Positions 1,487-63,713 of a stretch of 64,000 nucleotides of DNA are shown here, in pieces (positions within the stretch are counted from its first letter, which is position 1; each line of letters begins with the position of its first letter). Source of the stretch: Chrysomallon squamiferum (taxonomy: Eukaryota; Animalia; Mollusca). Below the pieces are notes generated by a model. It had not been told where the DNA came from and made no database searches. It saw only the letters and a program-made list of their open reading frames with translations. The translations under genes and the position numbers were made by a program. Location of the stretch: the NCBI GenBank assembly GCA_012295275.1, contig CM022678.1, positions 6,324,001 to 6,388,000 on the forward strand, read 5' to 3'.

Positions 1487-1536
<50 letters not shown>

Positions 1537-2424: not shown

Positions 2425-2507
<83 letters not shown>

Positions 2508-7170: not shown

Positions 7171-16542
<9,372 letters not shown>

Positions 16543-25653: not shown

Positions 25654-25925
25654 ATAATAATAATAATAATAATACTGGTACTGCTGCTGTTTCAGCTACT
25701 CTTACTAATATTTCTGGTAACTCGATTACTGCTAGTAAAACAGTGTCCAGTTTCTTAAGGTAGCTTGTTGTTTTTTGTGTGTGTTTTTTTTTTTTTTTTT
25801 TTTTTTTTTTTGTTGTTATTATTTTTTATTATTTATACTGTTATTATAGGCAACATCAAGTCTGTTTTGTTTTCATTAAAAAAACTGAAAAGTAAATTAA
25901 CAGTGCAAAATATACTTACAGCAAA

Positions 25926-25984
25926 TTAACGTTTTGCTATAAAAGAGATCGTATAATTAATTAATATTTTTACAAAATAAAATA

Positions 25985-28401: not shown

Positions 28402-28499
<98 letters not shown>

Positions 28500-32091: not shown

Positions 32092-32123
<32 letters not shown>

Positions 32124-32650
32124 AATAATAATAATAATAATGATGATGATGATGATAATAATAATAAAATAATAATAATAATAATGATGATGATGATGAT
32201 GATGATGATGATAATAATAATAATAATGATAATAATAATTATCATAATGTACCTGATATTCTCGATGAACGTTAAAAAAATAAATAATAATAAAATAAAT
32301 ATAACTGCATGAAAACTAAAAATTATATACTTTAAAGAAGAGAAGTATAAGTAATTTATTTTGAAACGCATATCTTAATTAATCATGTCATTTTATTGTG
32401 TTTTAGATTTTTATATAATTTCCAGACTTTAAACATTATTTAATTCTTTAGTGAAATAATGCTGTCTGGAAGTGACCACAATAGAATATGAAATTCTAAA
32501 GTTATTAATCAACTTGACGAATATTAAAGATATTTGATTAGAACAAAGCAATTACAAAACCTTTCTGACAACAGGTTACTTATCTATATATCAATTAATA
32601 TATCTGTCTGTCTCTCTATCTATCTGTCTATCTGTAGTCTTTATCGCTTG

Positions 32651-32710
<60 letters not shown>

Positions 32711-35700: not shown

Positions 35701-36415
35701 ACCGAAACTTGATTTAGAGCTAATCAGACCAACATATCATTATGCAGATACAGTTATGCAGATTTTGAACGCAGTCATATCAGTATAATTATAATCTATT
35801 ATTATTCTAAAAAGCAGGCACGCCATTAAAAAACATTTGTATGATTTCCATTGATTTCTGGCATTACTAAAACATTTAGAATCTTGCAAGTGATTTTAGT
35901 AAACATTACAGGTAAGATTCAAGGAAGAAGAAAGAAATCTGTGTAACAATTCTAACACTTCCAACTATCAAGAGTTTGAAACAGTGATTTTGAAATACTT
36001 ACTGCTTGAGAAAGCAGAACCTGAAAAACAAACAAATAAATAAATAAATAAATAAATGAATAAAAATAAATAAAACCTTAATTTAGAGTCTTGATTCTGT
36101 AATACCATTTTGTAAATGTACTGATATATATATATATATATATATCTTTTGTATATTTTTCGCTGTTAATTAGAAGAAATTGTTTTTGTTATATATTCAT
36201 GATTAAAGTGTTGTGTGTGTCAATAAAAATTGTCAGTTATTAATGATCAGTATCAGTACTACAATCTATCATTATTTATCTTTACAATCATACATTTCCA
36301 CTCAGTTTTAAGTAATTATTTTAAACACTACTCTTTTACGATCACATACATTTCAAAGATTTTATTTTATATATATTTCTATTTTGTACTTAATATAAAA
36401 CAAGTGAATATTTCA

Positions 36416-36466: not shown

Positions 36467-36647
36467 TATAATAATAATAATAATAATAATAGTAATAGTA
36501 ATAATAAACAGGCAACAGATTCAATAGTTTATTAGCAAAATGGATTTTGTTGCGATCTCATAATGTTTTAATTTTAGTTTATTTTTAAAAGCTTACTTGT
36601 TGCGAAGGTCATTGTGACAAGAAGGGCGACAACTAAAACAGCTTCAT
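25926..36647 (-). CDS. Micro-exon gene B: secreted Ser/Thr/Gly-rich protein with a 1-nt frameshift in the signal-peptide exon (assembly error or pseudogene)
   Basis: Signal exon 36652-36597 (ATG at 36647). Phase-1 micro-exons: 36020-36003, 35012-34995, 34510-34493, 34191-34174, 33806-33789, 33478-33461, 33083-33066, 32771-32754, 31743-31726, 31448-31431, 31250-31233, 30366-30343, 29845-29828, 28944-28927, 28520-28503, 27734-27711, 27232-27209. Stop exon 25936-25920. Spliced: MKxxLVVALLVTMTFAT-SSAFSS-SSTGAT-GSSPTS-FSTGST-GSSPTS-FSTGST-GSSPTS-YSTGTK-GSSPTS-FSSGST-ASSGIS-ATTGSSPL-SSSPTT-SSSRTS-FSSWST-ASSATSYP-TSTYSTTM-AKR*. Confidence 0.75.
26509..26777. repeat. Imperfect palindrome centred on an (AT)n tract, with a duplicated right arm
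   Basis: tcagtaaatcagttagaaaataaaataacacgagctgatatttaagaa-(AT)n-ttcttaaatgtcagttcgtgtttctttatttttaacttatttactga; outer arms tatccatactga / tcagtatggata. Confidence 0.7.
32500..34740 (-). repeat. Three tandem ~710-bp copies of a two-micro-exon unit in gene B
   Basis: The GSSPTS exon recurs at 33066, 33789 and 34493 with near-identical flanking introns. Confidence 0.9.
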
Positions 36648-36677
36648 GCTTGCTATTTGTTATCTTTCTTTCTGAAA

Positions 36678-37108: not shown

Positions 37109-37177
37109 CAAGTAATGTTACTCTTTAAATTCTGTCTTCACAATCTGTTTAACCCTGCAGTTTACATCACATTTATA
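37109..37177 (-). promoter_or_regulatory. TATA box and short non-coding first exon of gene B
   Basis: TATAAAT at 37177-37171 on -; an ATG-free stretch from ~30 nt downstream ends at a perfect TTG|GTAAGT donor at 37109; the next acceptor (aaatag) precedes the signal-peptide exon. Confidence 0.6.
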
Positions 37178-39379: not shown

Positions 39380-39486
39380 AGGTATATATTGTTTTATTCA
39401 TGAATAATTTACTTTAATTATGCATAGACTTCTTGAGCTCAAGTCTTAGTTTAGTCATCTCCGTGCTTTGACAGCTTTCGATTCCA
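39380..39486 (-). other. Terminal 3'UTR exon of micro-exon gene C
   Basis: Acceptor tttttgcag ends at 39487; AATAAA at 39398-39393; homologous to the terminal exons of genes A and B. Confidence 0.65.
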
Positions 39487-40636
39487 CTGCAAAAATAAAT
39501 AAATAAGTAAATAAGTAAAAAGTTAATTTTAAAGTAAAAATGACAGTTTTAATACTTATTTTCTTTAACGATAGCCAAAAACAACGTCAAATGATTTTAT
39601 CTAATTAATTCTTACAAATGTAATTAAATAATTAATTGTTAAGCTATGTTAGTCCAATGGCATGGAAATAAGGATTTTCCCCGTAACGTCCGTTAATGGA
39701 CAAAGATTAATTTAAAGATTACTAGTATTAGTAATGAGCAAATATTGTAACAAATGTTATATTATTTGAATGTCAGTTTGAGTTTATTTTTAAATTGATT
39801 TACTGATGTTACGATAATGTCACTACTGAATGAAACATTTTTTTATAATTATTTATTGATTTATTTAAAATTTTAATAGTAAATAAAATAAAATAAAGTA
39901 AATAAAATAAAATATAATAAATAATTATTCAAAAACTACATTTCGTTAACTTTATCGTTCAGTAAATAATTAACTATATAAAATAGATGGTAAATTTTAT
40001 ATCATGCATTGTTCATGAAAAAAAAAAATATATATATATATATATAACGCATTTTATCATGGCATTAAATTAATGGGAAAAAAAAAGAAACGAAAAGAAG
40101 AAAAAACAAACACGAAACAAGTTCCGTGAATGTTACAAAAATTACACTGCTTTTATTACATCCAAACAAATATTTTTTTTTATTAATATCAGATTAATAA
40201 ATATATTATATATTAGATAAATTAATTAATTATGCAGTGTTCAGTCTTTTAGATTTATATAACGAGAATGAAAAAAAATAGAATTATCAATAAAATTGAA
40301 ATTGCTAAACATATTTTACTTCAAATAATCAATAACAAAACCATTCTAAGAAAAGGTTAGTTCATAAATTAGATGTCTCTATTTATAATATTTTTTATGA
40401 ATCTAACAATTCAGCTGTTGATACGAACCTAAACAATACTTTAAAAATGTATTCAGTATAAATAAAATTAAATGAAAGGTAAAAATGTAAAAAATAACAT
40501 TATTTAAAGAACAATATGAAAAATAGTAATTAATCATTTTAATTTTATCTGTTGTTCGTCTAGAATCTTAAAATATGCTTTTCTTCCATTTACAAAATAT
40601 GATTTAAACTACTATTACTAAAAATTTACCTGTTGT

Positions 40637-41026
40637 TCACCAATCACCTAAAAATAAAAGAAATAAATGTAATAAATATTAATTAATAATAAATGTATTC
40701 AGTATAAACATAATTACAAGTAAAGTGAAAATTATTTTTTTACATAATATGATATACTTATATAAAGAAAACTATTATCAGTAAAAGAAATATTGAATTC
40801 AATATCTTATTACTCAGGTAATTTTACTGTGTTTTAGATTCTGATATAATGTCAACTATATACACTTTGTTTAATTGTCTACTGTGGAATGCTAACTTGA
40901 AATTATTGCAATACAATAGATATTTTATTAGAACTAACCAGTAAAAAAACCATATATTTATCTATCTATCTATCTATATATAGCCTTTCTTGATTCAAAC
41001 ACACAAACACACACGTAGATAATAAA

Positions 41027-41105
<79 letters not shown>

Positions 41106-41801
41106 GCAGTAGTAAATTAAAATACCATAAAGATATTAGTAATAAAATACATTTACTCATTTTATTTATTTACTAAAATAAACCTATCTTGAAGTTACTA
41201 CAATATCTGTCCGTCTGTCTATATGTTATGTATGTATGTATCTATCTATCTATCTCAATATTCCATATATATACATATATAAATTAATAATTTAATTTTA
41301 CAATAGGAATATACTTTAGCGTTTTCTTATCGAATAAAGCTAATGAAAGAATTATATTTCATCAGTTATTTCACTAGAATTTTAAAAACAAGACACAGGG
41401 AACATCACTTTTATGAATCTGGAAAAATTAAAAAGATTTGTTCAGAACTAAGGTAAGATAAAATTTTGTCCAAGCTCATAGTTAAGAAGGTTGCTGTATC
41501 CTCCATTACTGAATTGATTATGAAATTTTAGTATGTTTCAGAGTTATATATATAAATATTTTCAAAACATTAAAACTGTTTCAATACTTACAGACTGCAG
41601 CAGGTGTTGCTAGAAAATAAATATAGAATAAAATTATAAATCACATTCAGAAATATCAAACATATTCAAAACAATTGTACGAAAAACATATTTGACAAAA
41701 GTGGTTAATGTAACTCCGAACTGTTTCCCGATTTATGTATCATAGAACTTAACTGTTCATACAGCAGAACCCTAGCATACATACATACATATATATGTGT
41801 A

Positions 41802-41845
<44 letters not shown>

Positions 41846-42239
41846 ATAAAAAAATAATTAATAATTTAATATTAGTTTACAGATACACTTTAAGAAGAGG
41901 AGTTTATAATTATGTCAGCATTTTCTTATCCAATAAATTTAATAAAAGAACTATTTTTCATCAACATACGGTTATACTTTAAAGACAGAAGTGAAATATT
42001 TATGTGAGCATTTTGTTGTCGAGTAACGCCAAGGAAATAGTATTTCATCATTTATTTCACTAGAACCTTAAAAACTACAAAAGGCGAACATCACCTTTGG
42101 GAACCTGGAAAAGTTAGTAAAACTTTCTTATAAATAAGGTAAAATGATTTCGTTCAAATTGATGGTTAATAAACATGAAACCTAGTATACATACATACAT
42201 ATATACATATATATACTCACACACACAAACATGTATCTA

Positions 42240-42271
<32 letters not shown>

Positions 42272-45200
42272 CTCACACACACAAACATACGTATATATAT
42301 CTATATCAATATCACTAATAAAATCATTAATAATAAAATTTTAGTATACAGATATATTTTAAAAAGAGGGGAAAAAAATTATTTCAGCATTTTCTTATCG
42401 AATAAAGTTAATGAAAGAATTATATTTCATCAGTTATTTAACTAGAACTTTAAAAACAAGAAAAGGGGAATATCACCTTTCTGAAAGTGGAAAAATCAAA
42501 AAGATATTTTTCAGAACTAAGGTAAAATTATTTTGTTCAAACTCATAGTTAATAAATATGCTGTATCCTCTATTACTTAACTGATTATAAAATTTTAATA
42601 TCTTAAAGTCATATACATAAATATTTTAAAAACATAGGTGTTGCTACAATTAAATGGAATTAATAATTAATGACATTGACGAATATTAAACATAATCAAA
42701 ACAATTCTAGGAAAAAGATCGTTTCACAAACTTGGTTCATGAAGTTTTGTCCTCTTTCCCAATTGATATATTTTATAACGGAACTGTTCGTACACAAGAA
42801 CCCAAGTATATACATATATATAACAAAATAATAAATAATTTAGTTTTACTAGAGGCATATACTTTAAAAAGATGGATGTAATAATTATTTCAGCATTTTG
42901 TTATCGAATAAAGTTAATGAAAGAATTATATTTCTTCAGTTATTATACTAGAATTTTAAAAAGAAGAAAAGAAAGTACCATTTCTGAATGTGCAAAAAAA
43001 TGAAAAACACTTTATCAGAACTATGGTAACATTATTTTTTTCAAACCCATAGCTAATAAATACGCTGTACCCTACCTTAATTGATTAAAAATCTTAATAT
43101 ATTTTAGAGTTATATATATAAATATTTTCAGAACATTAAAATTATTTCCATACTTACTGGTTCTTCTAGGTGTTGCTGCAAAATAAATATGAAATTATAT
43201 ATATAAATATCCAACAAAAAATTAATAATGAGAATCTAGACGAAATACTAAGATTTTCTTCGACCGAAGATAAAATTACTTCGTTCAAATTTATGGTTAA
43301 TAAACATGCTACATACTGATTTATTTAACTGATCATGAAATTGGAATACCCTTAAGACTTATATAAACATATAGAAAACATTAAAACTGTTTCATTACTT
43401 ACTGGTAGTAGTAGGTGTTGCTACAAGAAAAAATGGAATGAAATAATTAATGACTTTGACGAATATTAAACATACTCAAAAAAATTCTAGGAAAAAGATC
43501 GTTTCACAAAGTTAGTTAATGTAACTTTGTCCTCTTTCCCAATCGATATATTTTATAACGGAACTGTTGGTACAGAATAAAGTTAATGAACTAATTATAT
43601 TTCATCAGTTATGTCATTAGAACTTTAAGATGAAGAAAACTTGATCATCACCTTTCTGAATGTGGAAAAACGAAAAAGACTTTTTTCAGAACTAAGGAAA
43701 CATTATTTTGTTCAAACTCATAGTTAATAAGTACGGTTTATCCTCCATTACTTAATTGATTATGAAATTTTAATGTCTTTTAGAGTTAAATACATAAATA
43801 TTTTCAAAATATTAAAATTGTTTCCATACTTACTGGTTGTAGTAGTTGTCGCTACAAAGTAAATATTGAATATATATAATTATCCAATAAAAAAATTAAT
43901 AATGTGAATCTGGAGAAATTACTAAGATTTCCTTAGAACTAAGGTAAAATTATTTCTTTCAAATTGATACTTAATAAACTTGATACATAACGCATTATTT
44001 AACTGATGATGAAATAGTAATATCTTTTAGACTTATATAAACATTTTCAAAACATTAAAACTGCTTCATTACTTACTGGTAGTAGTAGGTGTTGCTACAA
44101 AAAATGGAATAAAATAATTAATGACATTGGCGAATATCAAACAAACTCAAAACAATTCTAGGAAAAAGATTGTTTCACAAAGTTGGTTAATGTAACTTTG
44201 TCCTCTTTCCCAATCAATGTATTTGATAATGGAACTGTTTGTACAGAATAAAGTTAATGAAAGGATTATATTTCATCAGTTATTTCATTACAACTTTAAG
44301 GAAAAGAATAGGGGAACATCACCTTTCTGAATGTGGAAAAATGAAAAAGATTTTTTTCAGAACTAAGGTTCAAACTCATAGTTAATAAATATGCTGTATC
44401 CTCCATTACTGAATTGATTATGAAATTTTAATATCTTTTAGAGTTACATACATACACATTTTCAAAATATTAAAATTGTTTCCATACTTACTGGTTGTAG
44501 TAGGTGTCGCTACAAAATAAATATTAAATATATATATTTATATATAATTAGCCAATAAAAAAAAAATAATGAGAATCTGGAAAAAATACTAAGATTTTCT
44601 TAGACCTAAGATAAAATTACTTCCTTGAAATTTATGGTTAATAAACATGTTACATACTGCATTATTTAACTGATTATGAAATTGGAATACCCTTAAGAAT
44701 TATATAAACATATTGAAAACATTAAAACTGTTTCATTACTTACTGGTAGTAGTAGGTGTTGCTACAAGAAAAAAATGGAATGAAATAATTAATGACTTTG
44801 ACGAATATTAAACATACTCAAAACAATTCTAGGAAAAAGATCGTTTCACAAAGTTGGTTCATGAAACTTTGCTGTCTTTCTCAATTGATATATTTTTAAA
44901 AGGAACTGTTCGTACAGAAGAACCCCAGTAAATATATATATGTAGATATTTAAAACTGTTTCAGTACTTACTGGTAGTAGTAGGTGTTGCTACAAAACAA
45001 TGGAATAAAATAATTAATGACACTAAGGAATATTAAACATACTCAAAACAATTCTAGGAAAAAGATTGTTTCACAAAGCTGGTTAATGTAACTTTGTCCT
45101 CTTTCCCAATCGATATATTTTATAACGGAACTGTTGGTTGAGAATAAAGGTAATGAAAGAATTATATTTCATCAGTTATTTCACTAAAACATTAAGAACA

Positions 45201-46221
45201 AGAAAATGGGAAAAACACCAATCTGAATGCGGAAAAATGGAAGTCTTTTTTTCAGAACTAAGGAAACATTATTTTGTTCAAACTCGTAGTTAATAAGTAC
45301 GGTTTATCCTCCATTACTTAATTGATTATGAAATTTTAATGTCTTTTAGAGTTAAATACATAAATATTTTCAAAATATTAAAATTGTTTCCATACTTACT
45401 GGTTGTAGTAGGTGTCGCTACAAAATAAATATTGAATATATAGATATATATATATATAATTATCCAATAAAAATATTAATAATGTGAATCTGGAGAAATT
45501 AGTAAGATTTCCTTAGAACTAATGTAAAATTATTTCGTTCAAATTGATGCTTAATAAACAAGCTACATACTGCATTATTTAACTGATGATGAAGAAGTAA
45601 TATCCTTTAGACATATAAATATTTTAAAAACTTTAAAACTGTTTCATTACTTACTGGTAGTAGTAGGTGTTGCTACAAAAAATGGATTAAAATAATTAAT
45701 GACACTGACGAATATTAAACATATCCAAACAATTCTAGGAAAAAGATCGTTTCACAAACTTGGTTCATGAAGCTTTGTCCTCTTTCCCAATTGATATATT
45801 TGATAACGGAACTGTTCGTACACAAGAACCCAAGTATATACATATGTATAACAAAAAAATAAGTAATTTAGTTATACTATAGACATATACTTTAAAAAGA
45901 GGGATGTAATAATTATTTCAGCATTTTGTTATCGAATAAAGTTAATGAAAGAATTATATTTCTTCAGTTATTATACTAGAATTTTAAATAGAAGAAAAGA
46001 TAATCACCTTTCTGAATGTGCAAAAAATGAAAAACACTTTATCAGAACTATGGTAACATTATTTTTTCAAACCCATATCTAATAAATACGCTGTACCTTC
46101 CGATACTTAATTGATTAGAAATTTTAATATATTTTAGAGTTATATATATAAATATTTTCAGAACATTAAAATTATTTATATACTTACTGGTTGTTCTAGG
46201 TGTTGCTGCAAAATAAATATG

Positions 46222-46264
<43 letters not shown>

Positions 46265-48606
46265 AACAAAAAAATTAATAATGAGAATCTGGAAAAAATA
46301 CTAAGATTTTCTTAGACCTAAGATAAAATTACTTCGTTCAAATTTATGGTTAATAAACATGTTACATACTGCTTTATTTAACTGATTATTAAATTGGAAT
46401 ACCCTTAAGACTTATATAAACATATTGAAAACATTAAAACTGTTTCATTACTTACTGGTAGTAGTAGGTGTTGCTACAAAAAAAAAATGGAATGAAATAA
46501 TTAATGACTTTGACGAATATTAAACATACTCAAAACAATTCTAGGAAAAAGATCGTTTCACAAAGTTGGTTCATGAAACTTTGTTCTCTTTCCCAATTGA
46601 TATATTTTAAAAACGAACTGTTCCTACAGAAGAACCCCAGTAAATATAGATATGTAGATATTTAAAACTGTTTCAATTCTTACTGGTAGTAGTAGGTGTT
46701 GCTACAAAACAATGGAATAAAATAATTAATGACACTAACGAATATTAAACATATTCAAAACAATTCTAGGAAAAAGATTGTTTCACAAATTAGATCCATG
46801 CAACTGTGTCCTCGTTCCCAATCGATATATTTTATAACAGAACTTTTGGTACAGAATAAAGTTAATGAAAGAATTATATTTCATCAGTTATGTCATTAGA
46901 ACTTTAAGAACAAGAAAATGGGAAAAACACCTTTCTGTATGTGGAAAAACGAAAAAGACTTTTTTCAGAAGTAAGGAAACATTATTTTGTTCAAACTCAT
47001 GGTTAATAAGTACGGTTTATCCTCCATAACTTAATTGATTATGAAATTTTGATATCATTTAGAGTTACAAACATAAATGTTTTCAAAATATTAAAATTGT
47101 TTCCATACTTACTGGTTGTAGTAGGTGTCGCTACAAAATAAAGAATGAATGTATATATAATTATCCAATAAAGAAATTAATAATGTGAATCTGGAGAAAT
47201 TAGTAAGATTTCCTAAGAACTAAGATAAAATTATTTCTTTCAAATTGATGCTTAATAAACATGCTACATTCTGCATTATATAACTAATGATCAAATTGTA
47301 ATATCCTTTAGACTTATATAAACATTTCCAAAACATTAAAACTGTTTCGTTACTGGTAGTAGTAGGTGTTGCTACAAAAAAATGGAATAAAATAATTAAT
47401 GACATTGACGAATATTAAACATATTCAAAACAATTCTAGGAAAAAGATTGTTTCACAAATTAGATCCATGCAACTGTGTCCTCTTTCCCAACTGATATAT
47501 TTTATAACAGAACTTTTGGTACAGAATAAAGTTAATGAAAGAATTATATTTCATCAGTTATGTCATTAGAACTTTAAGATGAAGAAAACTTGATCATCAC
47601 CTTTCTGAATGTGGAAAAACGAAAAAGACTTTTTTCAGAACTAAGGAAACATTATTTTGTTCAAACTCGTAGTTAATAAGTACGGTTTATCCTCCATTAC
47701 TTAATTGATTATGAAATTTTAATGTCTTTTAGAGTTAAATACATAAATATTTTCAAAATATTAAAATTGTTTCCATACTTACTGGTTGTAGTAGGTGTCG
47801 CTACAAAATAAATATTGAATATATAGATATATATATATATAATTATCCAATAAAAATATTAATAATGTGAATCTGGAGAAATTAGTAAGATTTCCTTAGA
47901 ACTAATGTAAAATTATTTCGTTCAAATTGATGCTTAATAAACAAGCTACATACTGCATTATTTAACTGATGATGAAGAAGTAATATCCTTTAGACATATA
48001 AATATTTTCAAAACATTAAAACTGTTTCATTACTTACTGGTAGTAGTAGGTGTTGCTACAAAAAAAATGGAATAAAATAATTAATGACACTGACGAATAT
48101 TAAACATATCCAAACAATTCTAGGAAAAAGATCGTTTCACAAACTTGGTTCATGAAGCTTTGTCCTCTTTCCCAATTGATATATTTGATAACGGAACTGT
48201 TCATTAATGGAACCCCAGTATATATATATATATAACAAAAAATAAGTAATTTAGTTATACTATAGACATATACTTTAAAAAGAGGGATGTAATAATTATT
48301 TCAGCATTTTGTTATCGAATAAAGTTAATGAAAGAATTATATTTCTTCAGTTATTATACTAGAATTTTAAATAGAAGAAAAGATAATCACCTTTCTGAAT
48401 GTGCAAAAAATGAAAAACACTTTATCAGAACTATGGTAACATTATTTTTTCAAACCCATATCTAATAAATACGTTGTACCCTCCATTACTTAATTGATTA
48501 GAAATTTTAATATATTTTAGAGTTATATATATAAATATTTTCAGAACATTAAAATTATTTATATATACTTACTGGTTGTTCTAGGTGTTGCTGCAAAATA
48601 AATATG

Positions 48607-48667
<61 letters not shown>

Positions 48668-50356
48668 AACAAAAAAATTAATAATGAGAATCTGGAAAAA
48701 ATACTAAGATTTTCTTAGACCTAAGATAAAATTACTTCGTTCAAATTTATGGTTAATAAACATGTTACATACTGCTTTATTTAACTGATTATTAAATTGG
48801 AATACCCTTAAGACTTATATAAACATATTGAAAACATTAAAACTGTTTCATTACTTACTGGTAGTAGTAGGTGTTGCTACAAAAAAAAAATGGAATGAAA
48901 TAATTAATGACTTTGACGAATATTAAACAGACTCAAAACAATTCTAGGAAAAAGATCGTTTCACAAAGTTGGTTCATGAAACTTTGTTCTCTTTCCCAAT
49001 TGATATATTTTAAAAACGAGCTGTTCCTACAGAAGAACCCCAGTAAATATAGATATATGTAGATATTTAAAACTGTTTCAATTCTTACTGGTAGTAGTAG
49101 GTGTTGCTACAAAACAATGGAATAAAATAATTAATGACACTAAGGAATATTAAACATATTCAAAACAATTCTAGGAAAAAGATTGTTTCACAAAGACTGG
49201 TTAATACAACTTTGTCCTCGTTCCCAATCGATATATTTTATAACAGAACTTTTGGTACAGAATAAAGTTAATGAAAGAATTATATTTCATCAGTTATGTC
49301 ATTAGAACTTTAAGATGAAGAAAATGGGAACATCACCTTTCTGAATGTGGAAAAATGGAAAATACTTTTTTCAGAACTAAGGAAACATTATTTCGTTCAA
49401 ACTCATGGTTAATAAGTACGGTTTATCCTCCATTACTTAATTGATTATGAAATTTTGATATCTTTTAGAGTTACAAACATAAATATTTTCAAAATATTGA
49501 AATTGTTTCCATACTTACTGACTGTAGTAGGTATCGCTACAAAATGAATATTGAATATATATATACATAATTATCCAATAAAAAAATTAATAATCTGAAA
49601 CTGGAGAAATAAGTAAGATTTCCTTAGAACTAAGATAAAATTATTTCTTTCAAATTGATGCTTAATAAACATGCTACATTCTGCACTATATAACTAATGA
49701 TCAAATTGTAATATCCTTTAGACTTATATAAACATTTCCAAAACATTAAAACAATTTCGTTACTGGTAGTAGTAGGTGTTGCTACAAAAAAATGGAATAA
49801 AATAATCAATGACATTGGCGAATATTGAACATATTCAAAACAATTCTAGGAAAAAAATTGTTTCACAATGTTGGTTTATGTAACTGTGTCCTCTTTCCTA
49901 ATTGATATATTATAAAACGGAACTGTTCGTACAAAAGAACCCCAGTATATATATAAATATATATATATATAGGTAATCGAATATTTAATAATTTAATTTT
50001 AGTATGGTGATATACTTTAAAAAGAGTCCTCTGATAATTAGTTCGGCTCTATTTTAATCGATGAAAGATAATGTAACAACTATATTTCATCAGTTATTTC
50101 ACTAGAACTTTTAAAACAAGAAAAGGGTAACATCACCTTCCTGAATGTGGAAAAATGATAAAGATTTTTAGAAAACTAAGGTAAAATTATTTTGTTCAAC
50201 CTCATAGTTAATAAATATATTGTGTCCTCCATTACTGAATTGATTATGAAATTTGAATATCTTTCAGAGTTATATACATAAATATTTTACAAACATTAAA
50301 ATTGTTTCCATACTTACTGGTTGTAGTAGGTGTCACTACAAAATAAATAAAGAATG

Positions 50357-50403
<47 letters not shown>

Positions 50404-51842
50404 CACATATCCAATAACAAAATTAAGAATGTTAATAGGTAAAATTATCTCGTTGGAATTGATGTTTAATAAACCTGATACATAACGCATTATTTAACTG
50501 ATGATGAAATTGTAATATCTTTTAGACTTATATAAACATTTTCAAAGCATTAAGACTGTTTCAATACTTACTGGTATCAGTAGGTGTTGCTACAAAAAAT
50601 TGAATAAAATAGTTAATGAAATTGAGGAATATTAAAGATACTCAAAACAATTCTAGGAAAAAGATTTTTTCACAAAGCTGGTTAATGTAACTTCCTCCTC
50701 TTTCCCAACTGATATATTTTATAACAGAACTTTTGGTACAGAATAAAGTTAATGAAAGAATTATATTTCATCAGTTATGTCATTAGAACTTTAAGATGAA
50801 GAAAAAGGGAACATCACCTTTCTGAATGTGCAAAAAAACGAAAAAGACTTTTTTCAGAACTAAGGAAACATTATTTTGTTCAAACTCATAGTTAGTAAGT
50901 ACCGTTTTTCCTCCATTACTTAATTGAGTATGAAATTTTAAAGTCTTTTAGATTTACATACATAAATATTTTCAAAATATTAAAATTGTTTCCATACTTA
51001 CTGATTGTAGTAGGTATCGCTACAAAATAAATATTGAATATATATATATATAATTATCGAATAAAAAAGTTAATCATCTGAATCTGGAGAAATTAGTAAG
51101 ATTTCCTTAGAAGTAACGTAAAATTATTTCTTTCAAATTGATACTTGAAAAACATACTACATACTGCATTATTTAACTGATGATGAAATAGTAATATCCT
51201 TTAGACTTATATAAACATTTTCAAAACATTAAAACTGTTTCATTAGTTACTGGTAGTAGTAGGTGTTCCTACAAGAAAAAATGGAATAAAATAATTAATG
51301 ACTTTGAGGAATATTAAACATATTCAAACGAATTGTAGGAAAAAGATCGTTTCACAATGTTGGTTCATGTAACTGTTTCCTCCTTCCTAATTGATATATT
51401 TTAAAACGGAACTGTTCGTACAAAAAAACCCCAGTATATATATAAATATATATATATATAGGTAATCGAATAATTAATAATTTAATTTTAGTATGGTGAT
51501 ATACTTTAAAAAGAGGGCTCTGATAATTAGTTCAGCTTTTTTTCTATCAAAGAAATATAATGTAACAATCATATTTCATCAGTTATTTCACTAGAACTTT
51601 AAAAACAAAAAAAGGGTAACATCACCTTTCTGAATGTGGAAAAATGGAAAAGATTTTTAGAAAACTAAGGTAAAATTATTTTGTTCAACCTCATAGTTAA
51701 TAAATATATTGTGTCCTCCATTACTGAATTGATTATGAAATTTGAATATCTTTCAGAGTTATATACATAAATATTTTCCAAACATTAAAATTGTTTCCAT
51801 ACTTACTGGTTGTAGTAGGTGTCACTACAAAATAAATAAAGA

Positions 51843-51899
<57 letters not shown>

Positions 51900-53330
51900 G
51901 ATATCCAATAAAAAAATTAAGAATGTTAATAGGTAAAATTATTTCGTTGGAATTGATGGTTAATAATCTTGATACATAACGCATTATTTAACTGATGATG
52001 AAATTGTAATATCTTTTAGACTTATATAAACATTTTCAAAGCATTAAGACTGTTTCAATACTTACTGGTATCAGTAGGTGTTGCTACAAAAAATGGAATA
52101 AAATAGTTAATGAAATTGAGGAATATTAAAGATACTGAAAACAATTCTCGGAAAAAGATTTTTTCACAAAGGTGGTTAATGTAACTTCGTCCTCTTTCCC
52201 AATCGATATATTTTATAACAGAACTTTTGGTACAGAATAAAGTTAATGAAAGAATTATATTTCATCAGTTATTTCATTAGAACTTTAAGTTGAAGAAAAC
52301 TGGATCATCACCTTTCTGAATGTGGAAAAAAGAAAAAGACTTTTTTCAGAACTAAGGAAACATTATTTTGTTCAAACTCATAGTTAGTAAGTACCGTTTT
52401 TCCTCCATTACTTAATTGAGTATGAAATTTTAAAGTCTTTTAGATTTACATACATAAATATTTTCAAAATATTAAAATTGTTTCCATACTTACTGATTGT
52501 TGTAGGTATCGCTACAGAATAAATATTGAATATATATATATAATTATCGAATAAAAAAGTTAATCATGTGAATCTGGAGAAATTAGTAAGATTTGCTTAG
52601 AACTAAGGTAAAATTATTTCTTTCAAATTGATACTTGATAAACACGCTACATACTGCATTATTTAACTGATGATGAAATAGTAATATCCTTTAGACTTAT
52701 ATAAACATTTTCAAAACAATAGAACTGTTTCATTAGTTACTGCTAGTAGTAGGTGTTCCTACAAGATAAAATGGAATAAAATAATTAATGACTTTGAGGA
52801 ATATTTAACATATTCAAACCAGTTGTAGGAAAAAGATCGTTTCACAATGTTGGTTCATGTATCTGTTTCCTCTTTCCTAATTGATATATTTTAAAACGGA
52901 ACTGTTCATGCAAAAGGACCCCAGTATATATATAAATATATATATATAGGTAATCGAATATTTAATAATTTAATTTTAGTATAGTGATATACTTTAAAAA
53001 GAGGGCTCTGATAATTAGTTCAGCTTTCTTTTTATCAAAGAAATATAATGTAACAATTATATTTCATCAGTTATTTCACTAGAACTTTAAAAACAAGAAA
53101 AGGGTAACATCACCTTTCTGAATGTGGAAAAATGGAAAAGATTTTTAGAAAACTATGCTAAAATTATTTTGTTCAACCTCATAGTTAATAAATATATTGT
53201 GTCCTCCATTACTGAATTGATTATAAAATTTGAATATCTTTCAGAGTTATATACATAAATATTTTCCAAACATTAAAATTGTTTCCATACTTACTGGTTG
53301 TAGTAGGTGTCACTACAAAATAAATAAAGA

Positions 53331-53387
<57 letters not shown>

Positions 53388-54424
53388 TACATCCAGATAA
53401 AAAAAAAGAAAATAAGAATGTTAATAGGTAAAATTATTTCGTTGGAATTGATGGTTAATAATCTTGATACATAATGCATTATTTAACTGATGATGAAATT
53501 GTAATATCTTTTAGACTTATATAAACATTTTCAAAGCATTAAGACTGTTTCAATACTTACTGGTATCAGTAGGTGTTGCTAAAAAAAATGGAATAAAATA
53601 GTTAATGAAATTGAGGAATATTAAAGACACTGAAAACAATTCTAGGAAAAAGATTTTTTCACAAAGCTGGTTAATGTAAGTTCGTCCTCTTTCCCAATCG
53701 ATATATTTTATAACGGAACTTTTGGTACAGAATAAAGTTAATGAAAGAATTATATTTCATCAGTTATCTCATTAGAACTTTAAGATGAAGAAAAAGGGAA
53801 CATCACCTTTCTGATTGTGCAAAAAAACGAAAAAGACTTTTTTCAGAACTAAGGAAACATTATTTTGTTCAAACTCATAGTTAGTAAGTACCGTTTTTCC
53901 TCCATTACTTAATTGAGTATGAAATTTTAAAGTCTTTTATATTTACATACATAAATATTTTCAAAATATTAAAATTGTTTCCATACTTACTGATTGTAGT
54001 AGGTATCGCTACAAAATAAATATTGAATATATATATATATATAATTATCGAATAAAAAAGTTAATAATGTGAATCTGGAGAAATTAGTAAGATTTCCTTA
54101 GAACTAAGGTAAAATTATTTCTTTCAAATTGATACTTGATAAACATGCTACATATTGCATTATTTAACTGATGATGAAATAGTAATATCCTTTAGACTTA
54201 TATAAACATTTTCAAAACATTAAAACTGTTTCATTAGTTACTGGTAGTAGTAGGTGTTCCTACAAGAAAAATGGAATAAAATAATTAATGACTTTGAGGA
54301 ATATTAAACATATTCAAACCAATTATTGGAAAAAGATTGTTTCACAAAGTTGGTTTATGTAACTGTGTCCTCTTTCCTAATTGATATATTTTAAAACGGA
54401 ACTGTTTGTACACAAGAACCCAAG

Positions 54425-54458
<34 letters not shown>

Positions 54459-54840
54459 GGTAATCAAATATTTAATAATTTAATTTTAGTATGGTGATAT
54501 ACTTTAAAAAGAGGGCTCTGATAATTAGTTCAGCTTTTTTTCTATCAAAGAAATATAATGTAACAATTATATTTCATCAGTTATTTCACTAGAACTTTAA
54601 AAACAAAAAAAGGGTAACATCACCTTTCTGAATGTGGAAAAATGGAAAAGATTTTTAGAAAACTAAGGTAAAATTATTTTGTTCAACCTCATAGTTAATA
54701 AATATATTGTGTCCTCCATTACTGAATTGATTATGAAATTTGAATATCTTTCAGAGTTATATACATAAATATTTTCCAAACATTAAAATTGTTTCCATAC
54801 TTACTGGCTGTAGTAGGTGTCACTACAAAATAAATAAAGA

Positions 54841-54893
<53 letters not shown>

Positions 54894-56328
54894 TCAATAT
54901 CAAAAAAAAAATTAAGAATGTTAATAGGTAAAATTATTTCGTTGGAATTGATGGTTAATAATCTTGATACATAATGCATTATTTAACTGATGATGAAATT
55001 GTAATATCTTTTAGACTTATATAAACATTTTCAAAGCATTAAGACTGTTTCAATACTTACTGGTATCAGTAGGTGTTGCTACAAAAAATGGAATAAAATA
55101 GTTAATGAAATTGAGGAATATTAAAGATACTCAAAACAATTCTAGGAAAAAGATTTTTTCACAAAGCTGGTTAATGTAACTTCGTCCTCTTTCCCAATCG
55201 ATATATTTTATAACAGAACTTTTGGTACAGAATAAAGTTAATGAAAGAATTATATTTCATCAGTTATGTCATTAGAACTTTAAGATGAAGAAAAAGGGAA
55301 CATCAGCTTTCTGAATGTGGAAAAACGAAAAAGACTTTTTTCAGAACTAAGGAAACATTATTTTGTTCAAACTCATAGTTAGTAAGTACCGTTTTTCCTC
55401 CATTACTTAATTGAGTATGAAATTTTAAAGTCTTTTAGATTTACATACATAAATATTTTCAAAATATTAAAATTGTTTCCATACTTACTGATTGTAGTAG
55501 GTATCGCTACAAAATAAATATTGAATATATATATATAATTATCGAATAAAAAAATTAATAATGTTAATCTGGAGAAATTAGTAAGATTTGCTTAGAACTA
55601 AGGTAAAATTATTTCTTTCAAATTGATACTTTATAAACATGCTACATACTGCATTATTTAACTGACGATGAAATTGGACTATCCGTTAGACTTATATAAA
55701 CATTTTCAAAACATTAAAACTGTTTCGTTAGTTTCTGGTAGTAGTAGGTGTTCCTACAAGAAGAAATGGAATAAAATAGTTAATGACTTTGAGGAATATT
55801 AAACATATTCAAACCAATTATAGGAAAAAGATTGTTTCACAAAGTTGGTTCATGTAACTGTGTCCTCTTTCCTAATTGATATATTTTAAAACGGAACTGT
55901 TCGTACACAAGAACCCCAGTATATATATAAATATATATATATAGGTAATCGAATATTTAATAATTTAATTTTAGTATAGTGATATACTTTAAAAAGAGGG
56001 CTCTGATAATTAGTTCAGCTTTTTTTTTATCAAAGAAATATAATGTAACAATTATATTTCATCAGTTATTTCACTAGAACTTTAAAAACAAAAAAAGGGT
56101 AACATCACCTTTCTGAATGTGGAAAAATGGAAAAGATTTTTAGAAAACTATGCTAAAATTATTTTGTTCAACCTCATAGTTAATAAATATATTGTGTCCT
56201 CCATTACTGAATTGATTATGAAATTTGAATATCTTTCAGAGTTATATACATAAATATTTTCCAAACATTAAAATTGTTTCCATACTTACTGGTTGTAGTA
56301 GGTGTCACTACAAAATAAATAAAGAATG

Positions 56329-56392
<64 letters not shown>

Positions 56393-59300
56393 GATATCCA
56401 ATAAAAAAATTAAGAATGTTAATAGGTAAAATTATTTCGTTGGAATTGATGGTTAATAAACTTGATACATAATGCATTATTTAACTGATGATGAAATTGT
56501 AATATCTTTTAGACTTATATAAACATTTTCAAAGCATTAAGACTGTTTCAATACTTACTGGTATCAGTAGGTGTTGCTACAAAAAATGGAATAAAATAGT
56601 TAATGAAATTGAGGAATATTAAAGATACTCAAAACAATTCTAGGAAAAAAATTTTTTCACAAAGGTTGGTTAATGTAACTTCGTCCTCTTTCCCAATCGA
56701 TATATTTTATAACAGAACTTTTGGTACAGAATAAAGTTAATGAAAGAATTATATTTCATCAGTTATGTCATTAGAACTTTAAGATGAAGAAAAAGGGAAC
56801 ATCAGCTTTCTGAATGTGCTAAAAAACGAAAAAGACTTTTTCAGAACTAAGGAAACATTATTTTGTTCAAACTCATAGTTAATAAGTACGGTTTATTCTC
56901 CATACTTCATAAACATGATACATAATCCTTTATTTAACTGATGATCAAATTGTAACATCTTTTAGACTTATATAAAAATTTTGAAAACATTAAAACTGTT
57001 TCATTACTTACTGGTAGTAGTAGGTGTTGCTACAAAAAAAAAAATGGAAAAAAATAGTTAATGAAATTGGCTAATATTAAACATACTCAAAGCAATTCTA
57101 AGAAAAAGATTTTTTCACAAAGTTGGTTAATGTAAGTTTGTCCTCTTTCCCAATCGATATATTTGATAATGGAACTGATTGAACAGAATAAAGTTAATGA
57201 CAGGATTACATTTCATCAGTTATTTCATTAGAACTTTAAGAAGAAGAATAGTGGAACATCATCTTTCTGAATGTGGAAAAATGAAGAAGATTTTTTTCAC
57301 AACTAAGGTAACATTATGTTGTTCAAACTCTTAGTTAATAAATATCCTGTATCCTCCATTACTGAATTGATTGTGAAATTTTAATATCTTTTAGAGTTAC
57401 ATACATAAATATCTTCAAAATATTAAAATTGTTTCCATACTTACTGGTTGTACCAGGTGTCGCTACAAAATAAATATTAAATATATATATTTATATATAA
57501 TTATCCAATAAAAAAATTAATAATGTGAATCTGGAGAAATTAGTAAGATTTCGTTAGAACTAATGTAAAATTATTTCGTTCAAACTGATGCTTCATAAAC
57601 GTGCTACATACTGCATTATTTAACTGATGATGAAGAAGTAATATCGTTTTGACATATAAATATTTTAAAAACTTTAAAACTGTTTCATTACTTACTGGTA
57701 GTAGTAGGTGGTGCTACAAAAAATGGAATTAAATAATTAATGACATTGACGAATATTAAACATACTCAAAACAATTGTAGGAAAAAGATTGTTTCAGAAA
57801 GTTGGTCCATGCAACTTTGTCCTCTTTCCCAATTGATATATTTTATAACGGAACTGTTCGTACACAAGAACCCAAGTGTATACATATGTATAACAAAAAA
57901 ATAAATAATTTAGTTATACTGTAGACATATATTTTAAAAAGAGGGATGTAATAATTATTTCAGCATTTTGTTATGGAATAAAGTTAATGAAAGAATTATA
58001 TTTCTTCAGTTATTATACTAGAATTTTAAAAAGAAGAAAAGAAAGTCACCTTTCTGAATGTGCAAAAAATGAAAAACACTTTATCAGAACTATGGTAACA
58101 TTATTTTTTCAAACCCATAGCTAATAAATACTCTGTACCTTCCGTTACTTAATTGATTCGAAATTTTAAAATATTTTAGAGTTATATATATAAATATTTT
58201 CAGAACATTAAAATTATTTCCATACTTACTGGTTGTTGTAGGTGTTGCTGCAAAATAAATATGAAATTATATATATATATATATCCAACAAAAAAATTTC
58301 AATGAGAATCTGGAAAAAATACTAAGATTTTCTTAGACCTAAGATAAAATTACTTCATTCAAATTTATGGTTAATAAACATGTTACATACTGTTTTATTT
58401 AAATGATTATGAAATTGGAATATCCTTTAGACTCATATAAACATTTTCAAAACATTAAAACTGTTTCATTACTTACTGGTAGTAGTAGGTGTTCCTACAA
58501 AAAAAAAATGGAATAAAATAATTAATGACTTTGACGAATATTAAACATATTCAAACCAATTGTAGGAAAAAGATTTTTTCAAAAAGTTGGTTCATGTAAC
58601 TTCGTCCTCTTTCCCAATCGATATAATTTATAACAGAACTTTTGGTACAGAATAAAGTTAATGAAAGAATTATATTTCATCAGTTATGTCATTAGAACTT
58701 TAAGATGAAGAAAAGGGGAACATCACCTTTCTGAATATGGAAAAATGAAAAAGGCTTTTTTCAGAACTAAGGAAACATTATTTTGTTCAAACTCATGGTT
58801 AATAAGTACGGTTTATCCTCCATTACTTAATTGATTATGAAATTTTAAACTCTTTTAGAGTTACACACATAAATATTTTCAAAATATTAAAATTGTTTCC
58901 ATACTTACTGCTTCTAGTAAGTATCGCTACAAAATAAATATTGAATATAAATATATAATTATCGAATAAAAAAATTAATAAGGTGAATCTGGAGAAATTA
59001 GTAAGATTTCCTTAGAACTAAGATAAAATTATTTCTTTCAAATTGATACTTGATAAACATGCTACATACTGCATTATTTAACTGATGACGAAATACTAAT
59101 ATCCTTTAGACTTATATAAACATTTTCAAAACATTAAAACTGTTTCATTAGTTACTGGTAGTAGTAGGTGTTCCTACAAGAAAAAATGGAATAAAATAGT
59201 TAATGACTTTCAGGAATATTAAACATATTCAAACCAATTCTAAGAAAAAGATTGTTTTACAAAGTTGGTCCATGCAACTGTGTCCTCTTTCCTAATTGAT

Positions 59301-59746
59301 ATATTTTAAAACGGAACTGTTTGTACAAAAGAACCCCAGTATATATATAAATGTATATATATATAGGTAATCGAATATTCAATAATTTAATTTTAGTATG
59401 GTGATATACTTTAAAAAGAGGGCTCTGATAATTAGTTCAGCTTTTTTTTATCGAAGAAATATAATGTAACAATTATATTTCATCAGTTATTTCACTAGAA
59501 CTTTAAAAACAAGAAAAGGGTAACATCACCTTTCTGAACGTGGAAAAATGGAAAAGATTTTTAGAAAACTAAGGTAAAATTATTTTGTGCAAACTCTTAG
59601 TTAATAAATATGTTGTATCCTCCATTACTGAATTGATTATGAAATTTTAATATGTTTCAGAGTTACATACATAAATATTTTCCAAACATTAAAATTGTTT
59701 CCATACTTACGGGTTGTAGTAGGTGTCGCTACAAAATAAATAAAGA

Positions 59747-59793
<47 letters not shown>

Positions 59794-61915
59794 AACACAC
59801 ATATCCAATAAAAAAAATTAAGAATGTTAATAGGTAAAATTATTTCGTTGGAATTGATGGTTAATAATCTTGATACATAACGCATTATTTAACTGATGAT
59901 GAAATTGTAATATCTTTTAGACTTATATAAACATTTTCAAAGCATTGAGACTGTTTCAATACTTACTGGTATCAGTAGGTGTTGCTACAAAAAATGGAAT
60001 AAAATAGTTAATGAAATTGAGGAATATTAAAGATACTCAAAACAATTCTAGGAAAAAGATTTTTTCACAAAGCTGGTTAATGTAACTTCGTCCTCTTTCC
60101 CAATCGGTATATTTTATAACGGAACTTTTGGTACAGAATAAAGTTAACGAAAGAATTATATTTCTTCAGTTATTATACTAGAATTTTAAAAAGAAGGAAA
60201 GAAAATCACCTTTCTGAATGTGCAAAAAATGAAAAACACTTTCTCAGAACTATGCTAACATTATTTTTTCAAACCCATATCTAATAAATACTCTGTACCT
60301 TCCGTTACTTAATTGATTCGAAATTTTAAAATATTTTTTAGAGTTATATATATAAATATTTTCAGAACATTAAAATTATTTATATACTTACTGGTTGTTC
60401 TAGGTGTGTCTGCAAAATAAATATGAAATTATATATATATATATATCCAACAAAAAAATTTCAATGAGAATCTGGAAAAAATACTAAGATTTTCTTAGAC
60501 CTAAGATAAAATTACTTCGTTCAAATTTATTGTTAATAAACATGTTACATACTGTTTTATTTAAATGATTATGAAATTGGAATATCCTTTAGACTCATAT
60601 AAACATTTTCAAAACATTAGAACTGTTTCATTACTTACTGGTAGTAGTAGGTGTTCCTACAAAAAAAAAAATGGAATAAAATAATTAATGACTTTGACGA
60701 ATATTAAACATATTCAAACCAATTGTAGGAAAAAGATTTTTTCAAAAAGTTGGTTAATGTAACTTCGTCCTCTTTCCCAATCGATATAATTTATAACAGA
60801 ACTTTTGGTACAGAATAAAGTTAATGAAAGAATTATATTTCATCAGTTATGTCATTAGAACTTTAAGATGAAGAAAAGGGGAACATCACCTTTCTGAATA
60901 TGGAAAAATGAAAAAGGCTTTTTTCAGAACTAAGCAAACATTATTTTGTTCAAACTCATGGTTAATAAGTATGCTGTATCCTCCATTACTGAATTGATTA
61001 TGAAATTTTAAACTCTTTTAGAGTTACATACATAAATATTTTCAAAATATTAAAATTGTTTCCATACTTACTGCTTCTAGTAATTATCGCTACAAAATAA
61101 ATATTGAATATAAATATATAATTATCGAATAAAACAATTAATCATGTGAATCTGGAGAAATTAGTAAGATTTCCTTAGAACTAAGATAAAATTATTTCTT
61201 TCAAATTGATACTTGATAAACATGCTACATACTGCATTATTTAACTGATGACGAAATACTAATATCCTTTAAACTTATATAAACATTTTGGAAACATTAA
61301 AACTGTTTCATTAGTTACTGGTAGTAGTAGGTGTTGCTACAAGAAAAAATGGAATAAAATAATTAATGACTTTCAGGAATATTAAACATATTCAAACCAA
61401 TTGTAAGAAAAAGATTGTTTCACAAAGTTGGTCCATGCAACTGTGTCCTCTTTCCTAATTGATATATTTTAAAACGGAACTGTTCGTACAAAAGAACCCC
61501 AGTATATCTATAAATGTATATATATATAGGTAATCGAATATTCAATAATTTAATTTTAGTATGGTGATATACTTTAAAAAGAGGGCTCTGATAATTAGTT
61601 CATCTTTTTTTATTTCTAAGAAATATAATGAAAGAATTATATTTCATCATTTATGTCATTAGAACTTTAAAAACAAGAAAAGGGTAACATCACCTTTCTG
61701 AACGTGGAAAAATGGAAAAGATTTTTAGAAAACTAAGGTAAAATTATTTTGTTCAAACTCTTAGTTAATAAATATGTTGTATATCCTCCATTACTGAATT
61801 GATTATGAAATTTTAATATCTTTCAGAGTTACATACATAAATATTTTCCAAACATTAAAATTGTTTCCATACTTACGGGTTGTAGTAGGTGTCACTACAA
61901 AATAAATAAAGAATG

Positions 61916-61964
<49 letters not shown>

Positions 61965-63713
61965 CCAATGAAAAAATTAAGAATGTTAATAGGTAAAATT
62001 ATTTCGTTGGAATTGATGGTTAATAATCTTGATACATAATGCATTATTTAACTGATGATGAAATTGTAATATCTTTTAGACTTATATAAACATTTTCAAA
62101 GCATTGAGACTGTTTCAATACTTACTGGTATCAGTAGGTGTTGCTACAAAAAATGGAATAAAATAGTTAATGAAATTGAGGAATATTAAAGATACTCAAA
62201 ACAATTCTAGGAAAAACATTTTTTTCACAAACCTGGTTAATGTAACTTCGTCCTCTTTCCCAATCGATATATTTTATAACAGAACTTTTGGTACAGAATA
62301 AAGTTAATGAAGGAATTATATTTCATCAGTTATGTCATTACAACTTTAAGATGAAGAAAAGGGGAACATCACCTTTCTGAATGTGGAAAAACGAAAAAGA
62401 CTTTTTTCAGAACTAAGGAAACATTATTTTGTTCAAACTCATAGTTAATAAGTATGCTGTATCCTCCATTACTGAATTGATTATGAAATTTTAAAGTCTT
62501 TTAGATTTACATACATAAATATTTTCAAAATATTAAAATTGTTTCCATACTTACTGGTTGTAGTAGGTATCGCTACAAAATAAATATTGAATATATATAT
62601 ATATAATTATCGAATAAAAAAATTAATAATGTGAATCTGGAGAAATTAGTAAGATTTCCTTAGAAGTAACGTAAAATTATTTCTTTCAAATTGATACTGG
62701 ATAAGCATGGTAGATACTTCATTATTTAACTGATGATGAAATAGTAATATCCTTTAGACTTATATAAACATTTTCAAAACATTAAAACTGTTTCATTAGT
62801 TACTGGTAGTAGTAGGTGTTCCTACAAGAAAAAATGGAATAAAATAGTTAATGACTTTCAGGAATATTAAACATATTCAAACGAATTGTAGGAAAAAGAT
62901 TGTTTCACAAAGTTGGTCCATGCAACTGTGTCCTCCTTCCTAATTGATATATTTTAAAACGGAACTGTTTGTACACAAGAACCCCAGTATATATATAAAT
63001 GTATATATATATAGGTAATCGAATATTTAATAATTTAATTTTAGTATTGTGATATACTTTAAAAAGAGGGCTCTGATAATTAGTTCACCTTTTTTTAATC
63101 AAAGAAATATAATGTAAGAATTATATTTCATCAGTGATTTCAGTAGAACTTTAAAAACAAGAAAAGGGGAACATCACTTTTCTGAATCTGGAAAAATGAA
63201 AACTGTTTTATCTGAAGTTTTAATTGACCAGTTTGTGTAATTTCAAGACCATATAAATTGTTCTAATATTTACTGGAAGACGACGTCTAGAAGTAACAGA
63301 ATAAAATAAAATAAAATAAAATAAAAACATTGTTAATCAACCTGACATACATAAACGATATTTTATTAGAATTAAAGAACAGTAAACCATTCTAAGAAAA
63401 ATGTATTTCAGAAAATAATGAAGCAATATGATTTTATCTGATTCTTGAAAAGATGGAAAAGACTGACTATACTGGGATTACTAACACCCTTTACTGGTCC
63501 TAAGCAAACATGTTCAGATTCCAACTTCTGCTTTATAAATATATTATATACAGTATTATTTAATTATAAAAATAGTGAAAAAAAAATGGCTCGATTCTTA
63601 GAAAGGATTATTAAGATACGTGTATCTATCTTTGTACTTTTTCTTTATTTTATTATTTGTTTTATTTTTATTTCTTTTTATATATAATAACTTACCTGTT
63701 GTTCGAGATGAAC
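40637..63713 (-). CDS. Micro-exon gene C (5' part beyond the window): Thr/Pro-rich mucin-like protein encoded by ~58 18-nt exons
   Basis: Repeated tttt(g)YAG|CAACACCTACTACTACCA|GTAAGT-type exons every ~230-560 bp, e.g. 62821-62804, 62572-62555, 62143-62126, 61894-61877 ... 43420-43403, 43175-43158, 41609-41592; upstream exon 63713-63696; stop exon 40647-40630. Hexapeptides TTPTTT, RTPTTT, TIPTTI, TTPTDT, MTPTTT, TTPRTT; ends TTPRRT-TTPAAV-CDW*. No stop codon in any exon before the last. Confidence 0.8.
42350..63200. repeat. Complex tandem array of exon+intron units with higher-order periods of ~1.49, ~2.16 and ~2.39 kb
   Basis: MTPTTT-type exon at 50318, 51807, 53295, 54805, 56290; block pairs 45400/47783, 46188/48573, 58230/60392, 59711/61877. 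Confidence 0.92.

Follow-up and report, generated by a model that had tools for sequence, protein, structure and literature searches.

A satellite-like array of 18-nucleotide exons in Chrysomallon squamiferum is probably the repeat domain of a mucin-like gene

We analysed a 64,000-nucleotide stretch of DNA from Chrysomallon squamiferum (Mollusca; GenBank assembly GCA_012295275.1, contig CM022678.1, positions 6,324,001 to 6,388,000), hereafter the window, with positions counted from its first letter. Its minus strand carries, between 40630 and 63713, an array that looks like a satellite, in which 18-nt pieces recur between splice signals; we call this locus gene 1. In all likelihood these 18-mers are genuine exons of a mucin-like gene. 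We lean towards the view that gene 1 is expressed and encodes a secreted, Thr-rich mucin-like protein, with the array as its central, repeat-coding part and each 18-nt piece spliced singly. The gene reading is based on preserved AG/GT dinucleotides, one open frame, two paralogs that are homologous in introns, first exon and 3' exon, an RNA contig, and the precedents of chicken Muc13 and SmPoMuc of Schistosoma mansoni.

A scan of 40600-63800 for the pattern YAG-18nt-GTR gave 63 matches on the minus strand and 2 on the plus strand. Five of the former (63499, 61507, 42300, 40881 and 40611) were judged to be chance matches, with weak acceptors and unrelated sequence, and 58 were kept. Raw motif counts within a repeat are no independent test of chance, and other lengths also score high (22 nt: 50; 58 nt: 29 and 42). 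Because one motif in a repeat gets counted repeatedly, a second search used exon likeness alone and was blind to splice sites. This search returned 57 core 18-mers, all 57 preceded by AG and 56 followed by GT. The units have a T-rich tract, and the donors resemble GTAAGT, with unequal strength (C at +5 in 9 of 57). Together with exons 63713 and 40647, the core units make an intact set of 58 AG-18 nt-GT exons.

In terms of coding content, the exons take up 1044 of the 23084 bases of the array (4.5%), with a GC content of 0.45 against 0.25 for the array. Units are regularly spaced at 228-563 bp, apart from four longer gaps of 801, 892, 962 and 1566 bp. Across the 58 joined exons the three frames contain 7, 15 and 1 stops, the single one at the end. 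The open frame has 347 codons, including 234 Thr and 55 Pro, in TTPTTT-like repeats drawn from 23 distinct 18-mers. An earlier sequence-only reading of this DNA had described about 58 units of 18 nt bounded by splice signals, some 5% coding and predominantly Thr, and these counts agree with it. It had also stressed that the units never vary to a stop. The open frame is indeed free of stops before its end, but only 7 of 3024 possible single changes would give one, so that this absence carries almost no weight. A contiguous coding reading of the array was tried and rejected, the longest stop-free stretch in 40600-64000 being only 84-88 codons.

Each of the 58 micro-exons is symmetric, in phase 1 and with a length divisible by three. 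The gain, loss or skipping of a copy therefore leaves the reading frame intact. Only the last repeat exon ends in T, and thus no junction inside the array can create a stop.

The window holds at least three paralogous micro-exon genes: gene 1, gene 2 on the same strand (37145-25175) and gene 3 on the plus strand at the window start (198-5273). The three share intron sequence. The gene-1 flanks at 63998-63539 are 75% identical to gene 2 at 34752-34334, and 118-1339 in gene 3 is 90% identical to gene 2. Their 3' exons have a mean column identity of 82%, with an acceptor and AATAAA common to all. In genes 2 and 3 the exons have diverged into Ser/Gly/Thr repeats of 9, 12, 18, 24 and 27 nt, and the sole 17-nt exon carries a stop. 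Candidate AG..GT pieces of the paralogs are multiples of three in 40 of 48 cases, against 3 of 7 on the opposite strands (alternative donors counted). Both genes have the stop in the last micro-exon, followed by a non-coding 3' exon.

Gene 2 is seen whole. It consists of a leader, encoded by the second half of its ATG exon and judged by eye to be of signal type, and of micro-exons only, with no gel-forming module. This signal exon is one base short in the window (36635-36636); the extra base is present in both contigs of run X1 that cover this place, one of them from a further paralog, and in an RNA contig of run X3. Run X1 possibly has the same source as the window and is not independent. The missing base is likely an assembly error or an allele.

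Some further family-like pieces were observed. Copies with a lost acceptor or donor lie at 32253-32270, 27942-27959 and 40411-40428 on the minus strand; the gene-3 counterpart of the first two, at 1459, is intact, and exons have thus died within the family. Isolated micro-exons at 37964-37987 (24 nt) and 37715-37732 (18 nt), also minus, sit between the gene-1 end and the gene-2 5' exon and are perhaps remnants of a further paralog. A loose end of run X1 at 36617 leads into a paralogous signal-type exon with another second half and the same phase-1 donor, which may be that of gene 1, of gene 3 or of some other family member. One gene-2 intron contains a 59-bp unit in 2.2 direct copies (26540-26730), with an inverted copy beside it by eye.

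As for expression, four runs, three of them RNA, were aligned to the gene-2 signal exon. On this exon lies a contig of RNA run X3, 346 nt long (depth 4.2), which covers 36595-36672 and, over these 78 bases, differs by three letters and one gap. On one side it runs through the rest of exon 36020 straight into exon 35012, of which it holds the first 14 bases; on the other it reads the end of the upstream exon at 37109, with one difference. The contig thus lacks three introns, each removed at its predicted GT-AG sites, and it uses the 18-nt exons in phase 1, which in gene 1 is the phase of the Thr frame. The gene family is spliced at the predicted micro-exons. Gene 3 carries a second 18-nt exon identical to that of gene 2, so the source of the contig is ambiguous.

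Other searches gave no signal. Runs X2 and X4 had no contig on the gene-2 signal exon, which says nothing either way. A run search with the gene-1 3' exon (39170-39500) matched no RNA run and one run of unspecified kind, with 0.78 of 32 words, and is uninformative on expression. Metagenome contig scans with the 3'-exon motif and a signal-exon stretch found no match.

Several observations weigh against gene 1 as an expressed gene. The X3 contig is one contig, from one of three RNA runs in one study, and its source is gene 2, an allele or a further paralog; it does not come from gene 1. The gene-1 start falls beyond the window end. Two of the 58 Thr units are broken: a deletion has truncated the one at 42643 to its first 9 bases and left it without a donor, and the one at 55753 has GA for GT and, from its sequence, is likely skipped in splicing. 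A 13-nt AG..GT piece at 63286, which looks likely to be a decayed exon, would break the frame if spliced in; pieces placed similarly in genes 2 and 3 (34834 and 378) contain an in-frame stop. The 3' end also looks irregular. The frame would end at one of two places: a TGA in exon 40647, which precedes the last junction by 7 nt, or a point ten codons inside the terminal exon (39486). The donor-less exon remnant at 40428 lies nearby. Gene-3 stretches 3255-3573 and 4816-5762 match adjoining gene-1 DNA at 40074-39753 and 39828-38906; the family stop exon appears to have been deleted from gene 1 and the 3' end rearranged.

The pattern of variants adds to these points. A first parsimony count came out too high, owing to conversion and to three units whose downstream introns are unrelated; it was redone on distinct alleles with those three left out (53 of 56 units). 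Type A exon bases show 0.28 variants per site against 0.69 in introns (Fisher P=0.08) and type B exon bases 0.83 against 0.55 (P=0.13), so neither type is clearly conserved. Among 20 distinct exon variants, 17 are non-synonymous, introducing Arg, Ile, Met and Asp; the codon changes noted in the sequence-only reading are confirmed, and most of them alter the residue. Selection within the array is modest, and the array by itself is no proof of a gene.

These features are what would be expected if gene 1 were a dead or dying paralog, its exon-intron unit having spread as a neutral satellite with splice signals inherited and not maintained. The copies are young (nearest-copy identity 0.89-1.00), the selection signal in the exons is weak, two units are broken and the family stop exon is apparently lost. 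Yet similarity between the two unit types, A and B, is only 77% and the intron columns vary at 0.55-0.69 variants per site, while the AG/GT positions have a single variant where the intron columns predict 5.0 (P=0.04). The frame stays open to the stop just before the last junction, and an intact acceptor and AATAAA follow. A weaker point is that 56 aligned exons contain 0 indels while 480 nt of flanks contain 42 gap segments, many of these gaps being microsatellite and the cut unit at 42643 being unaligned. On balance we consider a dead gene unlikely.

We return to the expressed gene as the favoured reading. The mucin-like gene with one exon per repeat that had been proposed from the letters alone is partly supported: it gains a paralogous signal exon and 18-nt exons seen spliced, though in RNA that is not that of gene 1. 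The claim in the sequence-only reading that unit length never changes does not strictly hold, given the cut unit at 42643 and, besides, the lost donor at 55753. That reading had also overlooked both paralogs, both broken units and the 3' terminal exon at 39486.

Table 1. Coordinates of the exons and exon-like pieces of the three paralogous micro-exon genes in the window.
Feature	Position	Strand	Remark
Gene 1, first exon inside window, 18 nt, Ser-type (no Thr repeat)	63696..63713	-	AG/GT; counterpart of gene-2 exon 34510
13-nt AG..GT piece, likely decayed exon	63274..63286	-	
Gene 1, core array, 56 Thr-repeat units (55 with intact AG/GT)	43158..62821	-	
Unit with lost donor (GA for GT)	55736..55753	-	
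Unit truncated to 9 bases, without donor	42635..42643	-	
Gene 1, last, diverged repeat exon, 18 nt	41592..41609	-	
Gene 1, 18-nt exon with in-frame TGA at 40639-40637, candidate stop exon	40630..40647	-	
Gene 1, 3' terminal exon, acceptor 39486, AATAAA 39398-39393	39391..39486	-	aligned with 3' exons of genes 2 and 3
Gene 2, non-coding 5' exon end, donor after 37109	37109..37145	-	RNA contig end of run X3, one difference
Gene 2, exon with ATG at 36647, hydrophobic signal-type leader (by eye), phase-1 donor	36597..36671	-	
Gene 2, first 18-nt exon, spliced in RNA contig	36003..36020	-	
Gene 2, second 18-nt exon, first 14 bases spliced to first	34995..35012	-	
Gene 2, 16 more Ser/Thr/Gly-rich exons of 9, 18 or 24 nt and two lost-acceptor copies (32270, 27959)	27209..34510	-	
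Gene 2, 17-nt exon with TAA stop	25920..25936	-	BLAST counterpart of gene-3 exon 4437
Gene 2, 3' terminal exon with AATAAA	25175..25298	-	
Gene 3, nine exons of 12, 18, 24 or 27 nt, last with TAA; 5' part outside window	198..4454	+	
Gene 3, 3' terminal exon with AATAAA	5156..5273	+	

The core array is composed of 30 type A and 26 type B units, mostly alternating, and is organised in higher-order blocks of 4, 5, 6 and 7 exons (1.5, 1.7, 2.16 and 2.4 kb). Nearest copies are 6 exons apart near 62143-58247 (2.16 kb), 4, 8 or 12 exons apart near 56576-50335 (1.5-kb period), and 7 or 5 exons apart near 49781-43175 (2.4 and 1.7 kb). Such a block pattern is what repeated unequal crossing-over would be expected to leave. 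We propose that an ancestral family exon was duplicated into an A-B pair together with its introns, and that unequal crossing-over of the 4-, 5-, 6- and 7-exon blocks, which are themselves observed, would have expanded the pair to 58 units.

That such blocks could instead be an assembly artefact from duplicated reads is very improbable. Some blocks are 98-100% alike, and the window is probably not free of base errors or allele differences, with at least one in the gene-2 signal exon. On the other hand, the blocks carry their own substitutions and microsatellite lengths in nested periods, and there is no N in the window. The copy number could be off, but not the structure of the array.

In terms of product, PTS domains are defined by at least 40% Thr+Ser, Pro often over 5% and a repetitive sequence, and they are densely O-glycosylated into bottle-brush rods, as described in PMC4948705. 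With the predicted splicing, the repetitive gene-1 part has 344 residues with 68.9% Thr+Ser, 16% Pro, one Cys and no N-glycan sequon. No gel-forming feature (VWD-C8-TIL, cysteine-rich ends) was seen in the part of gene 1 inside the window, which has at most 1 Cys and no stop-free stretch beyond 84-88 codons, although no Pfam scan was run. Neither a SEA domain nor a transmembrane segment follows the repeats before the frame ends, at 40639 or in exon 39486. Since VWD, SEA and membrane segments are absent from the part seen, we propose a free mucus or surface-coat component and not a disulfide-linked gel former.

Transcription of gene 1 would begin outside the window, about 2 kb further if the gene is colinear with gene 2. 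Exons would then be joined across introns of 210-545 nt, each adding six residues. The product would be a short leader and about 345 residues, 69% Thr+Ser, disordered and, by analogy with PTS domains, densely O-glycosylated into a stiff hydrated rod. Its length would be set mainly by the genomic copy number.

A different use of the same exons can be envisaged, in which an expressed gene serves diversity: exons are skipped in many combinations, yielding a glycopeptide repertoire of varied length and charge, as proposed for schistosome micro-exon genes (MEGs) and SmPoMucs. Fully symmetric exons suit this idea, but exon duplication alone also demands symmetry. The 23 distinct 18-mers, with type B at least as variable as the introns and mostly non-synonymous changes (Arg, Ile, Met, Asp), point the same way, but the type B excess is non-significant. 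The unequal donors and tolerated dead copies, as well as the precedents in PMC2576457 and PMC4671649, are also in its favour. The X3 contig, however, keeps both exons in genomic order (with 30 letters of loose end), and no isoforms were observed in this single RNA contig. We regard exon skipping for diversity as doubtful, and continue to favour a mucin-like protein with length set by copy number.

Elsewhere in the window, an SLCO4A1-like organic anion transporter gene lies on the plus strand at 7172-16560, with an exon at 7973-8425 and exon-like pieces near 7172-7344, 15604 and 16308-16560. Of the 25 best matches of exon 7973-8425, 20 are named, every one a mollusc; identity peaks at 70%, in the gastropod Gigantopelta aegis. 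By these matches the host is a mollusc and likely a gastropod. A 41-bp tandem repeat occupies 17587-19692 (51.4 copies, 91% matches). On the minus strand at 23090-23350, a good acceptor at 23350 is followed by a GC-richer stretch, by eye an Asp/Glu-rich frame closed by a TAA near 23090; it probably represents another gene's last exon.

If gene 1 is a gene, it is a protein-coding gene that resembles a satellite, and gene finders and repeat maskers would likely lose it. Molluscan mucus proteomes may thus be undercounted. The three neighbouring paralogs would record the course of events, from an ordinary micro-exon gene (gene 2) through the local duplication and loss of exons to the runaway amplification of a single exon pair in gene 1. 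In this way a growing mucin domain can be followed block by block.

We compared gene 1 with known systems as the cited papers describe them. Chicken Muc13 has one exon per PTS repeat, with expressed sequence tag support, and control of length by splicing was proposed for it in 2006 (PMC1552070). The array shares this design and offers a test of that proposal. What sets Muc13 apart is its repeats of 20 residues, at least 12 in number, together with its SEA domain, membrane anchor and tail; none of these was seen in gene 1.

In SmPoMuc, a 27-bp repeat exon is duplicated with its introns in 1-kb genomic units within a clustered family (PMC2576457). As described there, SmPoMuc also has a signal peptide followed by short tandem repeats, a small exon repeated with its flanking introns, likely pseudogenes and microsatellites in the repeat unit, all of which recall the family in the window. 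The array differs in having 18-nt exons instead of 27-bp ones, 58 units instead of about 20, introns of 210-545 nt instead of about 1 kb, and a two-exon unit in higher-order blocks. The C-terminal region of SmPoMuc, with 234 residues (exons 3-15), has no match, the gene-1 frame ending within two exons of the array. Rfam gave 0 matches at gathering score in 36000-64000, hence no hammerhead ribozyme, unlike SmPoMuc introns. SmPoMuc is further marked by exon repetition, its mRNA carrying more repeats than its gene. The resemblance is likely convergent.

Schistosome MEGs have longer flanking exons, a signal in the 5' exon, symmetric micro-exons below 36 bp, and Thr/Ser/Pro-rich disordered products with predicted O-glycosylation; the descriptions confine them to Schistosomatidae and give 10-20 exons and products of about 10 kDa (10.1101/2023.06.21.545858; PMC4671649). 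Gene 2 closely matches this plan. The coding middle of genes 1, 2 and 3 consists mostly of micro-exons below 36 bp, and in gene 1 every one is symmetric (58 of 58). The host is a mollusc, outside the described range, and one member is amplified to satellite scale. A mollusc may have independently evolved a system of the schistosome style, in which secreted Ser/Thr glycopeptides, from symmetric exons that arise, die and are amplified like a satellite and are skipped combinatorially, form a variable coat against microbes or parasites; we put this forward tentatively and think it rather doubtful. Were it true, micro-exon diversification would be no speciality of parasites, and such genes would lie hidden under repeat masks in many animal genomes. 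Searches of open-licence PubMed Central and bioRxiv showed no molluscan micro-exon mucin among the matches listed.

The Xenopus integumentary mucins FIM-B.1 and FIM-C.1 also have repeats in separate exons. They are gel-forming skin mucins with cysteine-rich modules, none of which was seen in gene 1. FIM-C.1 is described as highly polymorphic through alternative splicing (PMC7177656).

Gene 1 would thus work like Muc13, SmPoMuc, MEGs and the FIM mucins, yet it falls outside each of them on domain content or host. The novelty implied by the sequence-only reading was overstated, since one exon per PTS repeat with control of length by splicing had been published for Muc13 and tandem exon-intron repeats for SmPoMuc. 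The design being already known, the surprise is limited. What is new here, with RNA support at the family level only, is a probable domain-less gene of six-residue exons amplified to satellite scale in a mollusc.

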